A program made the translations under genes and the position numbers. The notes under the pieces are model-generated. The model ran no database searches and was not told where the DNA came from. It worked only from the letters and a program-made list of their open reading frames with translations. This document shows, one piece after another, positions 2,378-15,835 of a stretch of DNA of 24,000 nt. Each line of letters starts with the position of its first letter. Within the stretch, counting starts at the first letter, position 1. The stretch comes from an uncultured archaeon (GTDB taxonomy: Archaea > Asgardarchaeota > Lokiarchaeia > Sigyniarchaeales > SOKP01), in the NCBI GenBank assembly GCA_964583985.1, contig CAZOYD010000023.1, positions 18,887 through 42,886 of the forward strand. The letters run 5' to 3'.

Positions 2378-4348
2378 CTAAATTTCTTCAAGAATTGCAT
2401 CTATTTGAGATTCATATTGGGGTTCACGATAGTATCTAAGAGTAATAGCCTCAGAAGGACAATTAGACAAGCAAGACCCACATCCTCGACAGAGAATCTC
2501 ATCTACATCTGCACCGTCTGGTTTTAATGAAATCGCATTATAAGGACAATTTAATTCGCACAAACCACATTTTGCACATTTTTCCTTATCTACAGTAGCC
2601 CGAATCAGCATTATCCTGTATTTATCTTTTCCCATTATACGGCTTACTGATGACGCGGCAGCTCTTCCTTGGGAAATTGATTCTGAGATCGATTTAGGAC
2701 CTTGTGCTACTCCGGCTAATACAATACCAGGAATTTTTGTGTCAATTGGATTTAAACGTGAATGAAATTCCTTGAAAAAACCATCTTGACTATTTTCAAG
2801 CTTTAATAACTTTCCAATTTTCTCAACACCTTTTGCAGGCATCATTGCACAAGATAAAACCACTAAATCAAACTCGATTTCCTTTAAACCAGAACTTGAA
2901 AGAGTATTTTGCATTATCACTTTAAGATTATGGGTTTCTGGATCTTCATTAATTTTCGAAATATTCGTCCGGACGTATCTTATTCCTTCCTTCCTTGAAG
3001 CTGTATAATATTCTTCATAATCCTTCCCAGCTGCTCTAATATCCATGTATGCTACACTGATATCTGCATCGGGATAGTGTTGTTTGATTAATTTTGTATT
3101 CTTAATTGAAATCATACAACACACCCCAGCACTACAGTATGTTTGCTTATTTAAATCTCGGGATCCTACACATTGTATGAATAGTATGCGCTTTGGAGTC
3201 TTTCCATCTGATGGTCTGGCAAGATGTCCTACTGTCGGACCGTTAGGAGCAAGTAATCTTTCAAGTTTCATTTGAGTTATTACATTAGGATATACGTTAT
3301 AACCTAAATAACCCGTTTCAGGCTCATATTCATCCCAACCTGTCGCTACTATGATGGTGCCTACTTTGATTTCTATAATCTCATCTTCTTGATTAAAATC
3401 AATAGCGTTCACTTCACAAGCTTTTTCGCATAATCCACATTTGATACATCTACTCATATCAATTTGAGCTTTTGAGGGAACAGCTTGAGCAAATGACACG
3501 TAAATTGCCTTTCTAGTATTCATGCCTTCATTGAATTCATCGTATCCATAGGATGGACAAACTTCAAAACAAGCTCCACATCCATTACAATCGCTCTTTA
3601 CATACTTAGCTTTTTTTCTAATTTTCACATTAAAATTTCCAATGAATCCAGAAACATCTTCAACATTGCTGTAAGTATATAGGTTTAAATTGGGAGTTCG
3701 AGCTGCTTGAAGCATAACCGGACCGAGAATTCAAATGCTACAATCATCAGTAGGAAAAGTTCGATCGAGCATAGCCATCTTACCACCTATTGTAGGGCTT
3801 TTTTCCACGAGATGCACTTCAAATCCCTCATCGGATAAATCAATTCCAGCACTCAATCCAGAAACTCCGCCTCCAATTATTAAAGCCTTTTTTGTTATAT
3901 CAACTTCTTTTACAAGTATTTCTTCTAACAAACTGGCCCGAGCAACTCCAGATTTTATTGCATCTTCTGCGGTTTTTTGAGCCCCCACCTTATCTTGGCG
4001 ATGTACAAAACTTGCATGTTCTCGAATGTTAACAAATTCTAAAAACGAAGGATCAATATTCATAGATTCAAGAACGCTTTTGAAAACGGGTTCATGAGTT
4101 TTAGGAGTACATGATGCTACAACAAGGCGATTAGCGTTACTTTCATTCATTTTCTCTTTTATAAATTCCGCTCCTGGTTCAGTGCATAAACTGATATAAT
4201 CTGATGCATCAACCACATTAGGTAAGGTCTTGGCAAATTCAGCGAGTGCTTTAGTGTCAATGATTTCAGCAATATTAATTCCTCAAGCACAAACACTAAC
4301 AAAAATCCGTATTTCTTCAGTATTTTTTGTAATCTCTGCTTCTACCAT
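2378..4348 (-). CDS. hdrA: heterodisulfide reductase subunit A (HdrA), FAD/[4Fe-4S] flavoprotein, selenoprotein with 2 in-frame UGA (Sec) codons
   Basis: Track fragments 2378..3715 and 3731..4216, plus an unlisted N-terminus, join in one frame. The frame runs from ATG 4348..4346 through TGA 4285..4283 and TGA 3733..3731 to the TAG stop at 2380..2378, giving 656 codons. N-terminus: MVEAEITKNTEEIRIFVSVCA[U]GINIAEIID. The junction reads TFPTDDCSI[U]ILGPVMLQAA. The FAD motif is IIGGGVSGLSAG. Four CxxCxxCxxxC(P) ferredoxin motifs are present (CNGCGACFEVCP, CIKCGLCEKACE, CAKCGLCELNCP, CRGCGSCLSNCP). Confidence 0.9.
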
Positions 4349-10091: not shown

Positions 10092-10388
10092 GTGTCAAAT
10101 TCGGAGATTTCCGATTATTTAGGAATTAAACCCGCTTCCGTGTCTGGGATGCTACATAAATTAAAGGATAATGGTTTCATTATGTGGAAACCAAGAAGTT
10201 CTATAAGGTTAACTCAAAATGGAAAGAATGCTGCTACTCAGGTAATCAAAAATTATATAAAATTAAAAAAATTTTTCATAAGTATCCTTAAATTAGATGA
10301 TAAAGATCTAATCGATGCATTATGCTGTGGTATTGAGCATCACATTACACCTGAAGTGAGAAATTCCCTAGATAATTTATTAAACTAG
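10092..10388 (+). CDS. DtxR/MntR-family metal-dependent transcriptional repressor (coordinates are the minimal GTG ORF; homology extends upstream to ~10026)
   Basis: The HTH region is VSNSEISDYLGIKPASVSGMLHKLKDNGFI, with ...LTQNGKNAA... and CCGIEHHITPE matching the metal-site/dimerisation region (EHH). The in-frame upstream sequence NESHEDYLKAIYLISRHKKGGW matches the family's N-terminal helix (xEDYLxxIY). There is no ATG/GTG/TTG in frame between the TAA at 9966 and 10092. Confidence 0.8.
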   Translation: MSNSEISDYLGIKPASVSGMLHKLKDNGFIMWKPRSSIRLTQNGKNAATQVIKNYIKLKKFFISILKLDDKDLIDALCCGIEHHITPEVRNSLDNLLN

Positions 10389-10498
10389 CTATTTATTTTG
10401 GAAATTTTATATATACTAGCTACTTAGAAAAACAAGCTTAAAAATGTTAAACATCTTTAACAATTAATTAAATTGTTTATTACAAATTAAAAAAGATA

Positions 10499-10795
10499 GT
10501 GAATGATATAAAAGAAGTGTCAGTTCTAATTTTAATTAAAGACGATCCCGAAAATGTTTGTGCAAAGTGTTGCAAAACGACACAAGTTATTGATAGAATG
10601 ATGGAAGAAATAGCAGAATTTAAGGACAAAGTAAAGATTATATATATAGATACCAAATCAAAAGAAGATATTGATAAATTTAAAAATCTCGAAAGACCTG
10701 CAGTTATCATAAATGATAAGGTGTTTTCTGAGGGACACATACCTATTATTAAAAAACTGAGCAGAGAATTATTCAAAATATTAAATTCAACTTAA
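10499..10795 (+). CDS. small thioredoxin-fold redox protein (Thioredoxin_3 / 'redox-active disulfide protein 2'-like)
   Basis: 98 aa. It has a CAKC(C) CxxC motif near the N-terminus and, later, ERPAVIINDKVFSEGHIP, which matches the family's conserved PA-[LV]-x-[IV]-[DN]-G/D-x-x-x-x-x-G pattern. GTG start. Confidence 0.7.
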   Translation: MNDIKEVSVLILIKDDPENVCAKCCKTTQVIDRMMEEIAEFKDKVKIIYIDTKSKEDIDKFKNLERPAVIINDKVFSEGHIPIIKKLSRELFKILNST

Positions 10796-10855: not shown

Positions 10856-11767
10856 TTATTTACTTTTTTCGTCAAAATCAGTTAAATGTTTGAATCGTCC
10901 ACCTAAAATATTTACCATATCTGAGGGAACAATAATCCATGCGCCTTTTTCTTTCATTGATTCATATAAAATATTCATTGCACGTAAATTTAATGCAACT
11001 TCATCACTTTCGTAAATTTTAGCCGCATTTATGAATTTATTGGCAATTTGTTCTTCAGAACCGGCTAAAATTATCCGGGCTTGGCGTTCTCTTTCCGCTT
11101 GTGCTTGTCTGCTCATTGCATCCTGTAATGCTGTAGGAATAATAACATCTCTAAGCTCAACAGCAATTGATTTTACACCCCATTCTTCCGTGCGTTCATC
11201 AATTATTCTTTCAAGTTCATGGGATATTTCTTCTCGCCCCACAAGCATTTGACTTAATTCTGTTTTTCCAATTATGTCCCGTAAAGAAGTTTGAGCTGCC
11301 CATGAAATCGCTGTCTGATAGTCTTGTACGTGGATAGATGCTTTAAACGCATCATTTACTTGCCAAAATAATACGGCATCTACATTAACGGGTACGTTAT
11401 CTTTCGTTAAGGTCTGTTCGGCTGAAAAAGTAGTCGTTATAATTCTAATATCTAACGTGAAAGGTATTTTATATACAAATGGGAATAGCCAAAACATCCC
11501 TGGACCACGCATTTTTTTATATTTTCCCAATAATAATGTTGGAACCCGTATCCATTCGGGTAGGATATAAATTCCTGCCATTAAAAAGCCTAAGACTATT
11601 AAAATAATGACTACTGTCAAAATTAAAATATTTATCGCAACTTGGAAAAATATATTTGCGATTACCATTCCAATTAAAACAATTAATCCAACAATAAAAA
11701 GAAAGTAGCCCACTCCACGTATTGAGTTTCCTCCTACTGAATATCGATTAAATTTATCTGACATCAT
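10856..11767 (-). CDS. SPFH/band-7 (stomatin/prohibitin-like) membrane protein
   Basis: 303 aa with N-terminal TM helices followed by a canonical SPFH core (TLTKDNVPVNVDAVLFWQV, LRDIIGKTELSQML, WGVKSIAVELRDVIIP). A coiled-coil tail follows (LQDAMSRQAQAERERQARIILA). Confidence 0.9.
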   Translation of the reverse strand: MMSDKFNRYSVGGNSIRGVGYFLFIVGLIVLIGMVIANIFFQVAINILILTVVIILIVLGFLMAGIYILPEWIRVPTLLLGKYKKMRGPGMFWLFPFVYKIPFTLDIRIITTTFSAEQTLTKDNVPVNVDAVLFWQVNDAFKASIHVQDYQTAISWAAQTSLRDIIGKTELSQMLVGREEISHELERIIDERTEEWGVKSIAVELRDVIIPTALQDAMSRQAQAERERQARIILAGSEEQIANKFINAAKIYESDEVALNLRAMNILYESMKEKGAWIIVPSDMVNILGGRFKHLTDFDEKSK

Positions 11768-11806: not shown

Positions 11807-12907
11807 TTATAATAATTTTAAACATTTTGCTAAACATCTATTAACACAGGCATTACAATTTATGCATTTTTCGAGATTTTTTAAATCAACCTTATTATCT
11901 TTATCATTAAATACATACAAATTCCTAGGGCATACTTCTATACACACCTTACATCCAATGCATTTTTCTCTCTCAATATTTATTTGTCCGTATGGTTGTA
12001 ATGTATATTCACCAAACAGGAATTTCATTTTCTTTCCACCTTTCTTCCATGTCTTTTCACCTAATTCACTTTTATAGATGGGTGTTAAGCCATTAAAATC
12101 TTCTGCCATAATCGTAGTAATTAACAGAGAAAATGAAATATTCCATAGCAGATAGAAAAGATCAAAAATAATAAACAAATTAAATATAGTAATTAGTCCA
12201 AGAATTATCCCTTCATAAATCCATACTTTTATTTTTCCTGTTCCTATGGGAATGCTTGGTAATAGTATCATTGACCCATAAATTATTATAACAAAAATCA
12301 AAAGTGTATCTAAATAGAGTAATAGATTCAAAATTGGTAAAAAAATTGCAGTAATCCAATAGATAACTGAAATAAAAAGAATTAAGATAAAGAAATATAA
12401 TGAAGCCATTTCTGCTCTGTGAGAGATAGGAAATCTTACTATTCTCTGTGCTTCTGACTTACTAAATTTTTGTTTTATAAAAGAAGGGATATCTTTAGCA
12501 TATACGGGACCGAACTTTATATCCCACTTTGTCTTTTTTTTAATAACGATTGGATCTATTCCGGGAGCGCTTAATTGGGGTATAATTAAAGTTCTATGAG
12601 AAACAAGATCATCGATTCCGCTGGTTTTTATAATTGATAGGACAGAATCCGTATTAAAATCATCTCCGCACGCTCCACACCATACATTGATTCCTTTAGA
12701 TGGAGCAACCAATAAATAACAGTCGAGATTCTTTATTGCTTTTAAAACTCGTTTTACTGTTAAATTAAAATTGCATGTTAGTAATACAGGACTTTCATTT
12801 GTAGGGTTTCCAATTTTAATGAGGGTTGGTTCAACAGGAAAACCCGTCCATCTTAGAAAAAATCCGAGGAATAATTTTATTGACTCTTTTATACTCATTT
12901 TTCTCAT
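11807..12907 (-). CDS. HgcA-HgcB-like fusion protein: corrinoid-binding (CFeSP/HgcA-type) domain + 4 TM helices + C-terminal 2x[4Fe-4S] ferredoxin
   Basis: The N-terminal domain follows the HgcA pattern: IGNPTNESPVLLTCNFNLT...YLLVAPSKGINVWCGACGDDFNTDSV...SHRTLIIPQLSAPGI...KFGPVYAKDIPSFI...RFPISHR. Four hydrophobic helices follow (res ~165-275). The C-terminus carries CIGCKVCIEVCP and CINCNACVNRC plus an extra C (LAKC). The cap-helix codons N74-G81 are at 12688..12665. Confidence 0.8.
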   Translation of the reverse strand: MRKMSIKESIKLFLGFFLRWTGFPVEPTLIKIGNPTNESPVLLTCNFNLTVKRVLKAIKNLDCYLLVAPSKGINVWCGACGDDFNTDSVLSIIKTSGIDDLVSHRTLIIPQLSAPGIDPIVIKKKTKWDIKFGPVYAKDIPSFIKQKFSKSEAQRIVRFPISHRAEMASLYFFILILFISVIYWITAIFLPILNLLLYLDTLLIFVIIIYGSMILLPSIPIGTGKIKVWIYEGIILGLITIFNLFIIFDLFYLLWNISFSLLITTIMAEDFNGLTPIYKSELGEKTWKKGGKKMKFLFGEYTLQPYGQINIEREKCIGCKVCIEVCPRNLYVFNDKDNKVDLKNLEKCINCNACVNRCLAKCLKLL

Positions 12908-12931
12908 ATTTAATAGTAATTATTATAACCT

Positions 12932-13594
12932 TTAGGATTGTTTTTTTTTCAACCTAAATAACTTTAAAGTATCTAATAAATAATATTTTTCTTCAATCAA
13001 AGAAAAATTATTACTTTCAAGTCGTATTTCTATATTTCTCAATGATTTAGTGGTCAATTGGGACTTAAAATATGTGATAATTATCAAGGGAGTTCTTATG
13101 AAGAAATAAACAATTTTTTTCCAAATTTTTTTAGGTTTCACCTCATCAACCAAAATAAATTCTCCATTATCTTTTAATATTCTATTGATTTGCTTTAAAC
13201 AAAAATCCTGCTCTTCCCCATAAAATTCACTAAAAGATAAAATGGCGATAATTTTATCAAATGACTTATCCGAAAATTTTTCATCTAATTCTATAACTGG
13301 CATTTTAATAACTTGAATACTCTTAGTTAATCCTTCTAATTCAATTTTTTTTTTAGCAACTTCAAGCATTTTTTCCGAATTATCAATACCGGTAACTATT
13401 ACTCCTTTTTTACCACATAGAATAGCGAAGGTTCCTGTACCCATACCGATATCTAAAATTGTTTCCTTTTTATTTATTAAGTTATCAACAATATACTTGT
13501 TGATTTTAAGTAAGCGTCCTAATGTCAAATTCTTCATTCCCTTGTCGTATCTTTCTGCCTTCTTTTCCAATGCTTTCATATAAACATAAGACAT
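12932..13594 (-). CDS. class I SAM-dependent methyltransferase (with hydrophobic C-terminal segment)
   Basis: 220 aa. Motif I is ILDIGMGTGTFAI, the acidic loop is VTGIDNSEKML, and the post-I/II motifs are IIAILSF and DNGEFILVD. The segment WKKIVYFFIRTPLIIITYF is hydrophobic. The gene ends 24 nt upstream of the hgcAB-like gene on the same strand. Confidence 0.8.
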   Translation of the reverse strand: MSYVYMKALEKKAERYDKGMKNLTLGRLLKINKYIVDNLINKKETILDIGMGTGTFAILCGKKGVIVTGIDNSEKMLEVAKKKIELEGLTKSIQVIKMPVIELDEKFSDKSFDKIIAILSFSEFYGEEQDFCLKQINRILKDNGEFILVDEVKPKKIWKKIVYFFIRTPLIIITYFKSQLTTKSLRNIEIRLESNNFSLIEEKYYLLDTLKLFRLKKKQS

Positions 13595-13703: not shown

Positions 13704-14009
13704 TTAATTTTTTTTGATTTCATTCTCTTTTTCTTTTTTTAATTCCTTTAACTTCTGCTTCAACGCTTTTTTTTTATTCTTGGTTAAAATCGAAATCTCT
13801 TTATTAAATATTTTTAAAATATATTTTAATTCAGAGATTCTCCCGTTTAAATCTCTTTTTTCCTTCTTAATAGAACCCATATCTCGATAATCTTGTTCAT
13901 ATTTAGAATAGATTTCATTGAGAACTGTATCGAATTCGATTGAAATTTTTTTTTGAATTTCAGCTTCCTTTTCCTTATATTTTTCTTCGATTTCATTCAA
14001 ATTTGTCAT
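13704..14009 (-). CDS. small Lys/Glu-rich coiled-coil protein
   Basis: 101 aa, with heptad-like K/E/I/L composition throughout. No family recognised. Confidence 0.5.
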   Translation of the reverse strand: MTNLNEIEEKYKEKEAEIQKKISIEFDTVLNEIYSKYEQDYRDMGSIKKEKRDLNGRISELKYILKIFNKEISILTKNKKKALKQKLKELKKEKENEIKKN

Positions 14010-14176: not shown

Positions 14177-15835
14177 CTACAACCACTTTATTACGTAAAG
14201 TGGCCACTTTTTTAAAACACCTTTAGGGTATTTCCCACTTCTGACCTTATCTAGCATTTCTGACCGAATTTTCAAGAAATCCACTGGATCTTCTTCAATC
14301 AATTGAATTCCTATCCCACCATCTAAAATACACTTTCTAAAATTATCATTCTTGACACAATTCAACAAAATTTCTTTAAAATTCTTTCGATTGATACATT
14401 CTGCTCCATAATTTGAATTCAATATTATCTTCCAGCTTTCATCTATACCCTTTTTGGGAGATACTAATAAAAGCAGATCAATATTTGATTTACTTTCAAT
14501 CCCTAAGCATTTTATTAACATGCGAGGATCTAAAATTTCAAAGGTATTAAAATTAAAGTAGTCACCGGCATAAACCGTATATCCTTTTTTTAAATGTAAA
14601 TTTTCAGAGATTTTTATTGGATATTTTAATTGAAATTCTGAACGCAAAATTTTACCGTTAATTTGAGGGAGAGCTTGTTGATTTACTAATTGGATAACAT
14701 CCCCAATATCTAAATTGATAAATACTTTAGTATCATCAAATCGAGATATTAGAAGCTTTCCAAATTTACTGTTACTATCGGAAATTAATTGTTTTTTTCC
14801 TTTATATTCTAGTACTGGTAAAGTTAAAGGAAATACGGTAAGAATATCTTTTTGTGAAATACCCTTAAGATCCTTATTTATTGTTGCTGCAAATGGTCCT
14901 GTCTCAGATGATACATATAAATTAGTAAATTTTTCTTCTCCTTTTTCCCATTTCATAAATTGACGGATTAAATCCCAATCTCTTGAAGATAATGAACTTA
15001 TACTAAAAATGAGAACTGCTTTTGATAATTTATTAGAAAGCAACTCCTGTATTTCTTTTGCGGCAGTTGTAACACCCTTTTTTTTAACTTTTAAGAGAAG
15101 TTTTTCTAACATCGGGTCAGGTTCAGGATCAACATCATTGAGGGATTTTTGTAACCCTATTTGGAATTTTTCTATATCTGCCCAACCAAGGATTGTAATT
15201 GCTGGAGCGGAAATTACAGAGATATCATTTAATGATAATATTTTTGCGATGATGTTGAGATTTTTTGAAAATTTATATTCGAAAAGAGTATAATTCGAAG
15301 GTTTCATTATTGCTAACATTAATCTCTGGGAGAATTCGGAAGAATATAGTGAGATAAAATTGGTATTTTCTGTATTATTTAATCCATCGATATCAAGCCT
15401 TGAAGGGATAAAAATTATTGCCGAGGATTTAGAATCCAATCCGCTCGATTCAAAAATTGCTTGCATTCCTGGTGCCCAATATAGTTTTACATTCTTTTTT
15501 GACATATGTAGCCATTTTAGCGAATTTATATCATTATTTGTAGTGCCTGAACTATGACATACAATTAAGGGTTCGGAACCATGAAAATTTGCGAGATAAT
15601 CATTAAGATCGATAGAAATTTTTTTAGAATCAGTTTTTTCTCTTTCTATTCTTTCAAAAATATCGGTTACTATAGCTAATCCTGAATTTTTTAAAATATA
15701 ATCAATATAATCTTCTTTTGATGAGATATCTAACCATTTTTTCCAATTGGTAGGTTGAATTTCAGAAAATATTTTATTAAAAAGCAATTGAACCTTGGGA
15801 TCAAAATCGTTTGATATCAATCTATTATCTTTCAC
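14177..15835 (-). CDS. divergent adenylate-forming enzyme (ANL/PaaK/F390-synthetase/GH3-like superfamily)
   Basis: 552 aa. LIVCHSSGTTNND resembles the [ST]SG[ST]TG phosphate-binding motif. LYVSSETGPFA resembles YGxTE. NLDIGDVIQL resembles the TGD motif. Motif order and spacing fit a two-domain acyl-adenylate enzyme. The substrate is unknown. Confidence 0.55.
   Translation of the reverse strand: MKDNRLISNDFDPKVQLLFNKIFSEIQPTNWKKWLDISSKEDYIDYILKNSGLAIVTDIFERIEREKTDSKKISIDLNDYLANFHGSEPLIVCHSSGTTNNDINSLKWLHMSKKNVKLYWAPGMQAIFESSGLDSKSSAIIFIPSRLDIDGLNNTENTNFISLYSSEFSQRLMLAIMKPSNYTLFEYKFSKNLNIIAKILSLNDISVISAPAITILGWADIEKFQIGLQKSLNDVDPEPDPMLEKLLLKVKKKGVTTAAKEIQELLSNKLSKAVLIFSISSLSSRDWDLIRQFMKWEKGEEKFTNLYVSSETGPFAATINKDLKGISQKDILTVFPLTLPVLEYKGKKQLISDSNSKFGKLLISRFDDTKVFINLDIGDVIQLVNQQALPQINGKILRSEFQLKYPIKISENLHLKKGYTVYAGDYFNFNTFEILDPRMLIKCLGIESKSNIDLLLLVSPKKGIDESWKIILNSNYGAECINRKNFKEILLNCVKNDNFRKCILDGGIGIQLIEEDPVDFLKIRSEMLDKVRSGKYPKGVLKKWPLYVIKWL

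Follow-up and report, generated by a model that had tools for sequence, protein, structure and literature searches.

A HgcAB-like fusion protein of an Asgard archaeon and its partner methyltransferase CpaM: a candidate corrinoid-mediated methyl relay

Introduction

What is the use, in an Asgard archaeon, of a protein that joins counterparts of the mercury-methylating pair HgcA and HgcB in a single chain? The question is raised by a gene for a 366-residue protein on a 24,000-nucleotide stretch of DNA from an uncultured member of the Lokiarchaeia (assembly GCA_964583985.1, contig CAZOYD010000023.1, positions 18,887 to 42,886; the whole stretch is hereafter called the window). In true HgcAB, the methyl group of S-adenosylmethionine (SAM) is passed via Co(I) to give methyl-Co(III) with Cys-thiolate ligation, and the clusters of HgcB provide the electrons (Zheng, 2024; PMC11588087). 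Fused HgcAB proteins were discovered by Podar et al. (2015), with members in Pyrococcus furiosus (AAL80853/Q8U2U9), M. methylutens, Kosmotoga and Atribacteria. A distinct clade of fused HgcAB, Thor- and Lokiarchaeota included, has been described since (Lin et al., 2023), and caution has been urged for such sequences (Capo et al., 2022). As described below, the window gene is a member of this family and forms, with an adjacent gene named cpaM, a self-contained two-gene module, which we read with moderate confidence as a membrane-anchored, SAM-dependent methyl relay that runs through a protein-bound corrinoid.

Family membership and domain architecture

The window gene belongs to the known family of "HgcAB-like fusion proteins", the "fused HgcAB" of the mercury literature. 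The NCBIfam model of that name, NF043039, gives 371.5 bits (cutoff 285) and places residues 11-363 on model positions 2-349/350. In hidden Markov model (HMM) searches, the models for true HgcA (NF040863; 167.5 bits, cutoff 275), HgcB (NF040864; 43 bits, cutoff 99) and corrinoid iron-sulfur protein (CFeSP; NF003195; 86.9 bits, cutoff 306) all stay under their cutoffs. The alignment to the CFeSP model covers the last ~125 of 450 positions, and the window protein is without the N-terminal [4Fe-4S] and TIM-barrel parts of the full-length acetyl-CoA decarbonylase/synthase gamma subunit. The original prediction, made from the letters of the window, had described a HgcA-HgcB-like protein that is no bona fide HgcA, and these scores bear it out. 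At E<=1e-5 there are 559 homologues, so the open reading frame (ORF) is far beyond chance. Relatives with 60-82% identity from metagenome-assembled genomes (MAGs) of Promethearchaeota, Thor-, Odin- and Heimdallarchaeota carry the family name, and an identical protein sequence is present in NCBI and JGI. The GC content of the window, ~29%, fits an AT-rich Asgard genome of the Promethearchaeota type, and named relatives at ~80% identity likewise place the window among the Asgard archaea. The family, together with its members in Asgard archaea and its partner gene, has been published or curated before; the gene adds no new object, and its novelty had been overrated in the original prediction, which was right that fused HgcAB appears in Podar et al. 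(2015) and that P. furiosus yields no methylmercury (MeHg).

The ORF lies on the minus strand, as do its partner and all its domains (Table 1); the strand had been left unstated before. The annotated start codon is the ATG at 12907. Homologues are mostly 363 residues long and begin with MS[IV]K, and for this reason the true start of the protein may be Met4 (ATG at 12898), three codons inside the annotated frame.

Table 1. Features of the window around the hgcAB-like gene (positions are those of the window).
Feature	Positions	Strand	Description and basis
cpaM	12932..13594	minus	Class I SAM-dependent methyltransferase, 220 aa; 24 nt upstream of the hgcAB-like gene; NF043040
hgcAB-like fusion gene	11807..12907	minus	ORF, 366 aa, ATG start; NCBIfam NF043039 match
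Corrinoid-binding domain, HgcA/CFeSP fold	12428..12850	minus	~Residues 20-160; Pfam CdhD, PDB sequence matches, Foldseek
Cap-helix motif G72-INVWCGACGDD-F84	12656..12694	minus	Translation and motif tabulations; C77 is the predicted Co ligand
Transmembrane domain, four helices	12095..12427	minus	Residues 161-271; AlphaFold2 secondary structure, hydropathy profile
Junction motif A-E-D-F-N-G-L-T-P-I-Y-K-S-E-L-G	12056..12103	minus	Residues 269-284; conserved, homologous to HgcA NFTGATTYTSxSGV
Fused 2x[4Fe-4S] ferredoxin domain	11810..12031	minus	Residues 293-366; Pfam Fer4 families, Foldseek match to HgcB
SPFH/Band-7 gene	10856..11767	minus	39 nt downstream of the hgcAB-like gene; Pfam Band_7, E 2e-33
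DtxR-family metal-dependent repressor fragment and small thioredoxin-like protein (Thioredoxin_3)	10092-10795	plus	Converge on the end of the cpaM-hgcAB-like-SPFH string

All blocks of the HgcA corrinoid-domain pattern that had been listed for the protein are present: SPVLLTCNFNLT (39-50), GINVWC (72-77), SHRTLIIPQLSAPG (103-116), FGPVYAKDIPSF (132-143) and RFPISHR (158-164). Pfam assigns residues 25-142 to CdhD (PF03599; E 2e-16) and 309-361 to a Fer4 dicluster, and the corrinoid domain matches the CFeSP gamma subunit 2h9a among PDB sequences (E 1.7e-10). An AlphaFold2 model built from a 24-sequence input alignment has a mean predicted local distance difference test score (pLDDT) of 84.6 and a predicted template modelling score (pTM) of 0.80. 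It consists of a Rossmann-like N-terminal domain, transmembrane helices at 161-189, 195-218, 224-247 and 250-271, a short helix at 276-288 and the ferredoxin. The N-terminal fold had been named beforehand as a point on which the prediction could fail, and Foldseek against the PDB recovers the HgcA/CFeSP fold: 9a0b_A, from the integrative model of HgcAB, ranks first (E 1e-8, 317 columns), followed by the CFeSP corrinoid domains 2ycl, 4c1n, 2h9a and 4djd with a root-mean-square deviation (rmsd) of 1.7-2.6 A over ~135 columns, and the C-terminus is matched by 9a0b_B, which is HgcB. Together with the Cys positions (45, 63, 77, 80, 316/319/322/326, 348/351/354/358 and 362), Pfam and the model agree with the predicted layout of a 366-residue fusion with four transmembrane helices and a C-terminal ferredoxin with two CX2CX2CX3C motifs. 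In the homologue alignment of the window's clade (alignment A1), all eight cluster Cys are invariant, as are D270, G273, P276, K279 and S280 of the junction motif and W76 and C77 of the cap helix, where N74-V75-W76-C77 keeps the cap-helix Cys of HgcA (Cys93 of ND132).

The partner methyltransferase CpaM

The most informative clue to the mechanism is the adjacent, co-conserved cpaM gene, which the original prediction had missed. Its product reaches 242 bits with NCBIfam NF043040, "corrinoid protein-associated methyltransferase CpaM", whose cutoff is 180, and NCBI uses the same name for its Asgard relatives. The window gene qualifies for this family, a hypothetical equivalog, with no difference in membership; the name is a database annotation only. 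The two genes are in-frame, with one stop codon and eight codons between them (12908-12934). SAM motif I of CpaM, LDIGMGTG, is invariant and the acidic D71 is kept; CpaM also has a family-specific GEFxxxDEVKP block, after which comes a conserved hydrophobic helix (157-178). The AlphaFold2 model (pLDDT 90.4) is a generic Rossmann methyltransferase with Coq5/UbiE as its closest match (TM score 0.77). Among 7.7 million PubMed Central (PMC) papers and 0.34 million bioRxiv preprints, no paper with the name and no functional study of the protein came to light, and the literature from 2023 on yielded no functional study of hgcA-like genes, paralogs or homologs. A "UbiE" methyltransferase is drawn beside the hgcA-like genes of marine Nitrospina by Villar et al., and the HgcA-like genes of Nitrospina are discussed alongside the fused-HgcAB clade by Lin et al. 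(2023).

How general the pair is was read from 79 loci in GTDB reference genomes, found by means of the family alignment. A CpaM homologue accompanies the HgcAB-like gene in 63 of 69 judgeable loci, lying directly upstream in 55 and within the same ORF in eight, and it is found at <=1.8 kb upstream in three further loci. It is adjacent in none of seven true hgcA+hgcB loci (Fisher p = 8e-7 against the HgcAB-like loci). The linked loci span Asgard archaea, Bathyarchaeia, Hadarchaeota, Thermoplasmata, Chloroflexota, Aminicenantes, Desulfobacterota, Myxococcota, Acidimicrobiia and others. Among the family representatives at 50% identity, many are single proteins of 580-640 residues in which the methyltransferase forms the N-terminal portion and the HgcAB-like part follows. 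No third conserved gene was found, since all-versus-all clustering of the flanking ORFs yields only antisense shadow ORFs of the core pair, and in a Pfam census of the 133 nearest flanking genes no family occurs in more than three loci. cpaM and the hgcAB-like gene are thus a module of two genes, complete in itself.

Several loci show variations on this arrangement. Natural CpaM-HgcA-ferredoxin triple fusions in ORFs of ~600 residues occur in a Promethearchaeota MAG (L011) and in L033, L034, L035, L039, L043 and L051. A third architecture, seen in L072 (1386-3346) and L079 (3182-5302), has CpaM fused to the HgcA-like part and encodes the ferredoxin downstream in an ORF of its own; in L079, from Thorarchaeota, the small ORF ends in ...STSCCG and resembles the tail of HgcB. 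One contig of a Thermoanaerobaculales MAG (L060, 43-5017) carries two cpaM-hgcAB-like pairs ~3 kb apart, with the motifs WCAAGAGYF and WCAAGGRIF.

The altered cap-helix motif

Family motifs were read out by HMM-column extraction. Column by column, the W-C-A-A-G-K-G-T-F of true HgcA corresponds to W76-C77-G78-A79-C80-G81-D82-D83-F84 in the window protein. The original prediction had noted both a new C77/C80 pair and a replacement of Lys and Gly by acidic residues; the pair stands, and in the aligned columns it is C80 that takes the place of Gly and G81 that of Lys. The high-stringency Hg-MATE motif N[VI]WC[AS][AGS]GK (Capo et al., 2022) has NVWCGACG as its counterpart here and does not match.

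Conservation of the WCGAC motif among orthologues had been named as a check. In close relatives it holds: the second Cys (WCxxC) is kept in 115 of the 120 closest homologues (42-100% identity) and C80 is near-invariant in alignment A1. Family-wide it does not, as C80 is present in 15 of 122 representatives (50% identity level) and 12 of 72 reference-genome loci. The motif of the whole family is W-C-[ASG]-[AS]-x-G-G-[H/E/D]-[FLM], in which the Lys of true HgcA is missing from every member, and an ending in GDDF is all but confined to the Asgard clade. Otherwise, the window protein shows no substantial difference from the family (NF043039), with which it has in common the corrinoid, transmembrane and dicluster ferredoxin parts in one chain and the CpaM partner; its Asgard-centred subclade adds the second Cys (WC[GA][AS]C) and the acidic GDDF, against WCAAxGG[H/D/E][F/L] in most of the family. 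WCGAC/GDDF is the mark of that clade only, and the family-wide change is that of Lys81 to Gly.

Placement of the corrinoid domain relative to true HgcA was examined in a neighbour-joining (NJ) tree of 126 residues, a crude method with weak rooting and modest support. All 28 sequences with K81 form one clade without the window protein, with a bootstrap of 54% for the exact clade and 74% for a near-identical one, and seven of 21 C80 sequences lie outside the main clade, so that C80 is polyphyletic in this distance tree. With NJ rooting, true HgcA appears nested in the HgcAB-like diversity; we do not claim this, because a single distant outgroup and 126 columns make it unreliable. Nor do we build on the covariation between C80 and acidic residues at position 83, which is weak (Fisher p = 0.047) and not corrected for phylogeny. 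In two representatives, P0139 and P0219, Ser or Tyr occupies the position of the Co-ligand Cys77 and C80 is retained, which could be a sequencing error or a shifted ligand.

Comparison with HgcAB and CFeSP

The window protein and true HgcAB (NF040863/NF040864; Parks, 2013; Zheng, 2024) share a corrinoid domain with the N-V-W-C Cys ligand, a membrane domain with a common motif (NFTG..TS in HgcA, DFxG..KS in the window family) and a 2x[4Fe-4S] ferredoxin, and they probably share the chemistry from SAM to Co(I) to a methyl-Co(III)-thiolate. They differ as follows. First, the window protein is one polypeptide whereas HgcAB is two, and it has an obligate CpaM partner that is absent from all seven true hgcAB loci examined. 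Second, G81 stands where HgcA has its motif Lys. Third, the window protein has four transmembrane helices followed by an amphipathic helix and the ferredoxin, whereas HgcA has five (Cooper, 2020): after the junction motif (DFxGxTPxYKSxLG in the window family, NFTGATTYTSxSGV in true HgcA), the chain continues into a fifth hydrophobic helix in true HgcA and into the ferredoxin in the window family. On the modelled topology, the four helices would bring the chain back to the membrane side of the corrinoid domain, and the fused ferredoxin could therefore reach the corrinoid. Fourth, the window protein has neither an equivalent of HgcB Cys73 nor the C-terminal Cys pair of HgcB. Cys73, ~12 residues past the second cluster motif, is strictly conserved and its replacement in C73A abolishes Hg methylation, and C94A/C95A lowers it by 95% (Cooper, 2020). 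The true HgcB ORFs of the surveyed loci carry GVGC and a terminal CC. Past its last cluster Cys, the window protein has a tail of eight residues, LAKCLKLL, in which C362 (+4) is the sole Cys; the tails of 186 fused-family proteins have a median of eight residues, and CC is found in 2/186 only.

One of the two proteins with CC, P0242 (445 aa), combines NVWCAAGKGTF with a fused dicluster ferredoxin and a GVGC and CC-rich tail, and looks like a genuine fusion of HgcA and HgcB. Fusion alone therefore does not define the family. The converse case is that of L072 and L079, in which the HgcA-like part is fused to CpaM, yet the ferredoxin is separate.

CFeSP (AcsC/CdhE large subunit), which acts with the methyltransferase MeTr in the Wood-Ljungdahl pathway, offers a second comparison. 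Besides the corrinoid fold (rmsd as given above), the two share a logic: a corrinoid protein, a dedicated methyltransferase that loads it with methyl, and reductive activation by an Fe-S centre. CFeSP itself is a soluble protein with Thr, not Cys, beneath the cobalt; it receives its methyl from methyl-tetrahydrofolate via the TIM-barrel MeTr and donates it to the Ni of acetyl-CoA synthase, whereas the window protein is membrane-anchored, Cys-ligated and partnered with a Rossmann SAM enzyme.

A proposed methyl relay and its alternatives

How would the module work? In the relay that we favour, the fused 2x[4Fe-4S] domain would first reduce the bound corrinoid to Co(I). SAM-bound CpaM would then dock at the corrinoid domain and Co(I) would take the methyl, CpaM filling the role of MeTr with SAM in place of methyl-folate. 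Cys77 of the cap helix would, like Cys93 of HgcA, coordinate methyl-Co(III) as a thiolate in the lower axial position, and the methyl would finally be handed to an acceptor presented on the cytoplasmic side of the membrane domain with its four helices. This is the most economical account of a module in which the Cys, the corrinoid fold and both clusters are kept and a dedicated, often fused, SAM enzyme has been gained.

Several points weigh against the relay. True HgcAB uses SAM without CpaM, so that CpaM may not load cobalt, and none of the class I methyltransferases with a solved structure is known to have a corrinoid as its methyl acceptor. The cap region, with a pLDDT of ~61, is the lowest-confidence part of a model that was built without cofactor. 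The flanking-gene Pfam census shows a neighbourhood that points to no acceptor. As to the distinction from mercury methylation, Podar et al. caution that MeHg-negative cultures need not mean that the enzyme is incapable, and such negatives could stem from uptake or expression rather than from the capacity of the enzyme.

The main rival is one that we consider unlikely: the HgcAB-like protein would be methylated directly by SAM, as true HgcAB is without a separate methyltransferase, and CpaM would be a second catalyst that acts on the substrate, at another position or step, or on the product, and not on cobalt. The nearest characterised relatives of CpaM methylate lipophilic or membrane substrates, namely quinones for UbiE/Coq5 and phospholipids for PmtA/phosphatidylethanolamine N-methyltransferase, and the conserved hydrophobic helix 157-178 of CpaM is in keeping with such a role. 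Against it, the recurrent fusion of CpaM to the N-terminus of the corrinoid domain and the near-obligate adjacency of the two genes, with nothing else conserved around them, argue for a physical complex. The fusion by itself cannot distinguish the two roles of CpaM.

A further possibility, which we hold to be doubtful, is that the module serves in soft-metal or metalloid stress, the methyl going to a thiol that metal has damaged or to a thiophilic metal(loid), Hg excepted, with the Asgard C77/C80 pair binding the substrate or acting as a redox switch of the cobalt ligand. The lead comes from P. furiosus. In its transcriptome after a shock with 20 uM Cu (PMC7830388, supplementary file 3), the copper chaperone PF0727 (CopZ) rises with a log2 fold change of 6.7, and directly after it in the genome PF0728, a "SAM-dependent methyltransferase", rises with 5.0 (32-fold; adjusted p 5e-76) and PF0729, a "Ferredoxin", with 3.4 (11-fold; adjusted p 3e-35), the last being listed by the authors only as "ferredoxin" among antioxidant enzymes. 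AAL80853 is the accession under which McDaniel et al. cite the fused HgcAB of P. furiosus. We infer its identity with PF0729 from accession arithmetic and from the pair of annotations, which match, and the same two-gene module would then respond to soft-metal stress in an organism that is MeHg-negative. Keeping the Cys-on ligand would, according to Cooper (2020), favour the transfer of methyl to electrophilic metals, links of hgcAB to ars genes have been published, and the near-invariance of C80 in the window's clade would suit a function for the pair. The census speaks against a general role of this kind: metal-related neighbours are not general beyond P. furiosus, no metal genes recur by the module in 72 other genomes, ArsR-type helix-turn-helix genes make up 2/133 flanking genes, and HMA/CopA is not enriched. 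Nor are the thioredoxin-like and DtxR-like neighbours of the window module conserved. C80, polyphyletic and missing from ~88% of the family representatives, cannot be essential to the chemistry of the family. WCGAC at the N-terminus of a helix would resemble the WCGPC of thioredoxin, a likeness that we count as a weak point of the stress explanation.

That the protein is a functional mercury methylase, an orthologue of HgcA and HgcB in fused form that produces MeHg, is highly improbable. Such an enzyme would share with it the corrinoid fold, the Co-ligand Cys, the membrane domain and the dicluster ferredoxin, and the MeHg-negative cultures of P. furiosus are, according to Podar et al., no proof of incapacity. 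However, the protein stays under the curated HgcA and HgcB cutoffs, is without the cap-helix GK of the Hg-MATE definition and without the HgcB Cys73 and C-terminal cysteines required for methylation, falls outside the K81 clade, and has a partner seen in 0/7 true hgcAB loci. Two cultured carriers of the fused gene have produced no MeHg, P. furiosus (Podar et al., 2015) and M. methylutens (Gilmour, 2018). Because the motif Lys, Cys73 and the Cys tail, the parts with which HgcAB handles Hg(II), are missing from its sequence, it is very unlikely that the window protein has as its acceptor Hg(II) that is delivered in the manner of HgcAB. Least credible of all is the reverse direction, in which the corrinoid protein would take a methyl from a methylated substrate as in MtaC-type demethylation or methylotrophy: corrinoid proteins with dedicated methyltransferases commonly serve methylotrophic demethylation and the ferredoxin domain could be a reductive activator, but the partner is a Rossmann SAM enzyme with an intact SAM motif and not a TIM-barrel MT1/MT2-type protein, the corrinoid domain is of the CFeSP/HgcA and not the MtaC/MetH B12-binding type, and no methylotrophy genes are linked in the flanking-gene census.

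Neighbouring genes and other features of the window

The SPFH gene is probably co-transcribed with the module here and is not a conserved part of it, being found beside the module only in the near-identical contigs L001 and L002 and missing from the other 79 loci. The DtxR-like and thioredoxin-like neighbours are likewise conserved only in these two contigs. On the upstream side, the minus strand encodes a Lys/Glu-rich protein of 101 residues (13704-14009), probably a coiled coil and with no family assignment, which recurs within ~1.6 kb of the module in the Asgard loci L005, L006 and L018 with varying side and strand, and an orphan ORF of 552 residues (14177-15835), for which even permissive thresholds gave no match in Pfam, NCBIfam or the PDB sequences. 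Scans of the window for tRNAs and with Rfam gave no matches.

At 2378-4216 on the minus strand, an FAD/NAD-binding ORF of 161 residues and an ORF of 445 residues with four Fer4 motifs are in-frame and split by a TGA at 3731-3733 in the context FPTDDCSI-TGA-ILGPVM; joined, they make a HdrA-like protein of ~612 residues. The site would coincide with a conserved Cys/Sec position of HdrA, and the TGA is probably a selenocysteine codon. No selenocysteine insertion sequence (SECIS) element for it was identified, the Rfam gathering scan being empty.

Implications for the family

Metagenome studies widely let counts of hgcA-like genes stand for MeHg production, and in some surveys the only filter is "NVWCAA" or the presence of the Cys. 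With such a filter, true HgcA (...GK) cannot be separated from the CpaM-linked family (...xG). Three discriminators are available instead: Lys at +4 after the Cys, the HgcB Cys73 with the C-terminal Cys tail, and an adjacent or fused CpaM. Used jointly, they tell the two families apart cleanly in 76 reference loci. They also supply a structural reason for the failure of fused-gene carriers to methylate Hg, and may bear on the "HgcA-like" genes of marine Nitrospina that are drawn with a UbiE-type neighbour.

A bolder proposal, to which we give little weight for now, joins the favoured relay to the stress response: in a widespread and so far unrecognised CpaM/HgcAB-like system, the Rossmann enzyme would load a Cys-ligated membrane corrinoid, which would methylate a thiophilic metal(loid) or another soft electrophile under stress, in line with the induction by copper in P. 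furiosus, and in the Asgard clade a thioredoxin-like C77-x-x-C80 dithiol would bind the substrate or gate the ligation of cobalt by its redox state. If this were true, CpaM would become the first shown example of a class I methyltransferase with a protein-bound corrinoid as its acceptor, and the purpose of the "fused HgcAB" genes would be explained.

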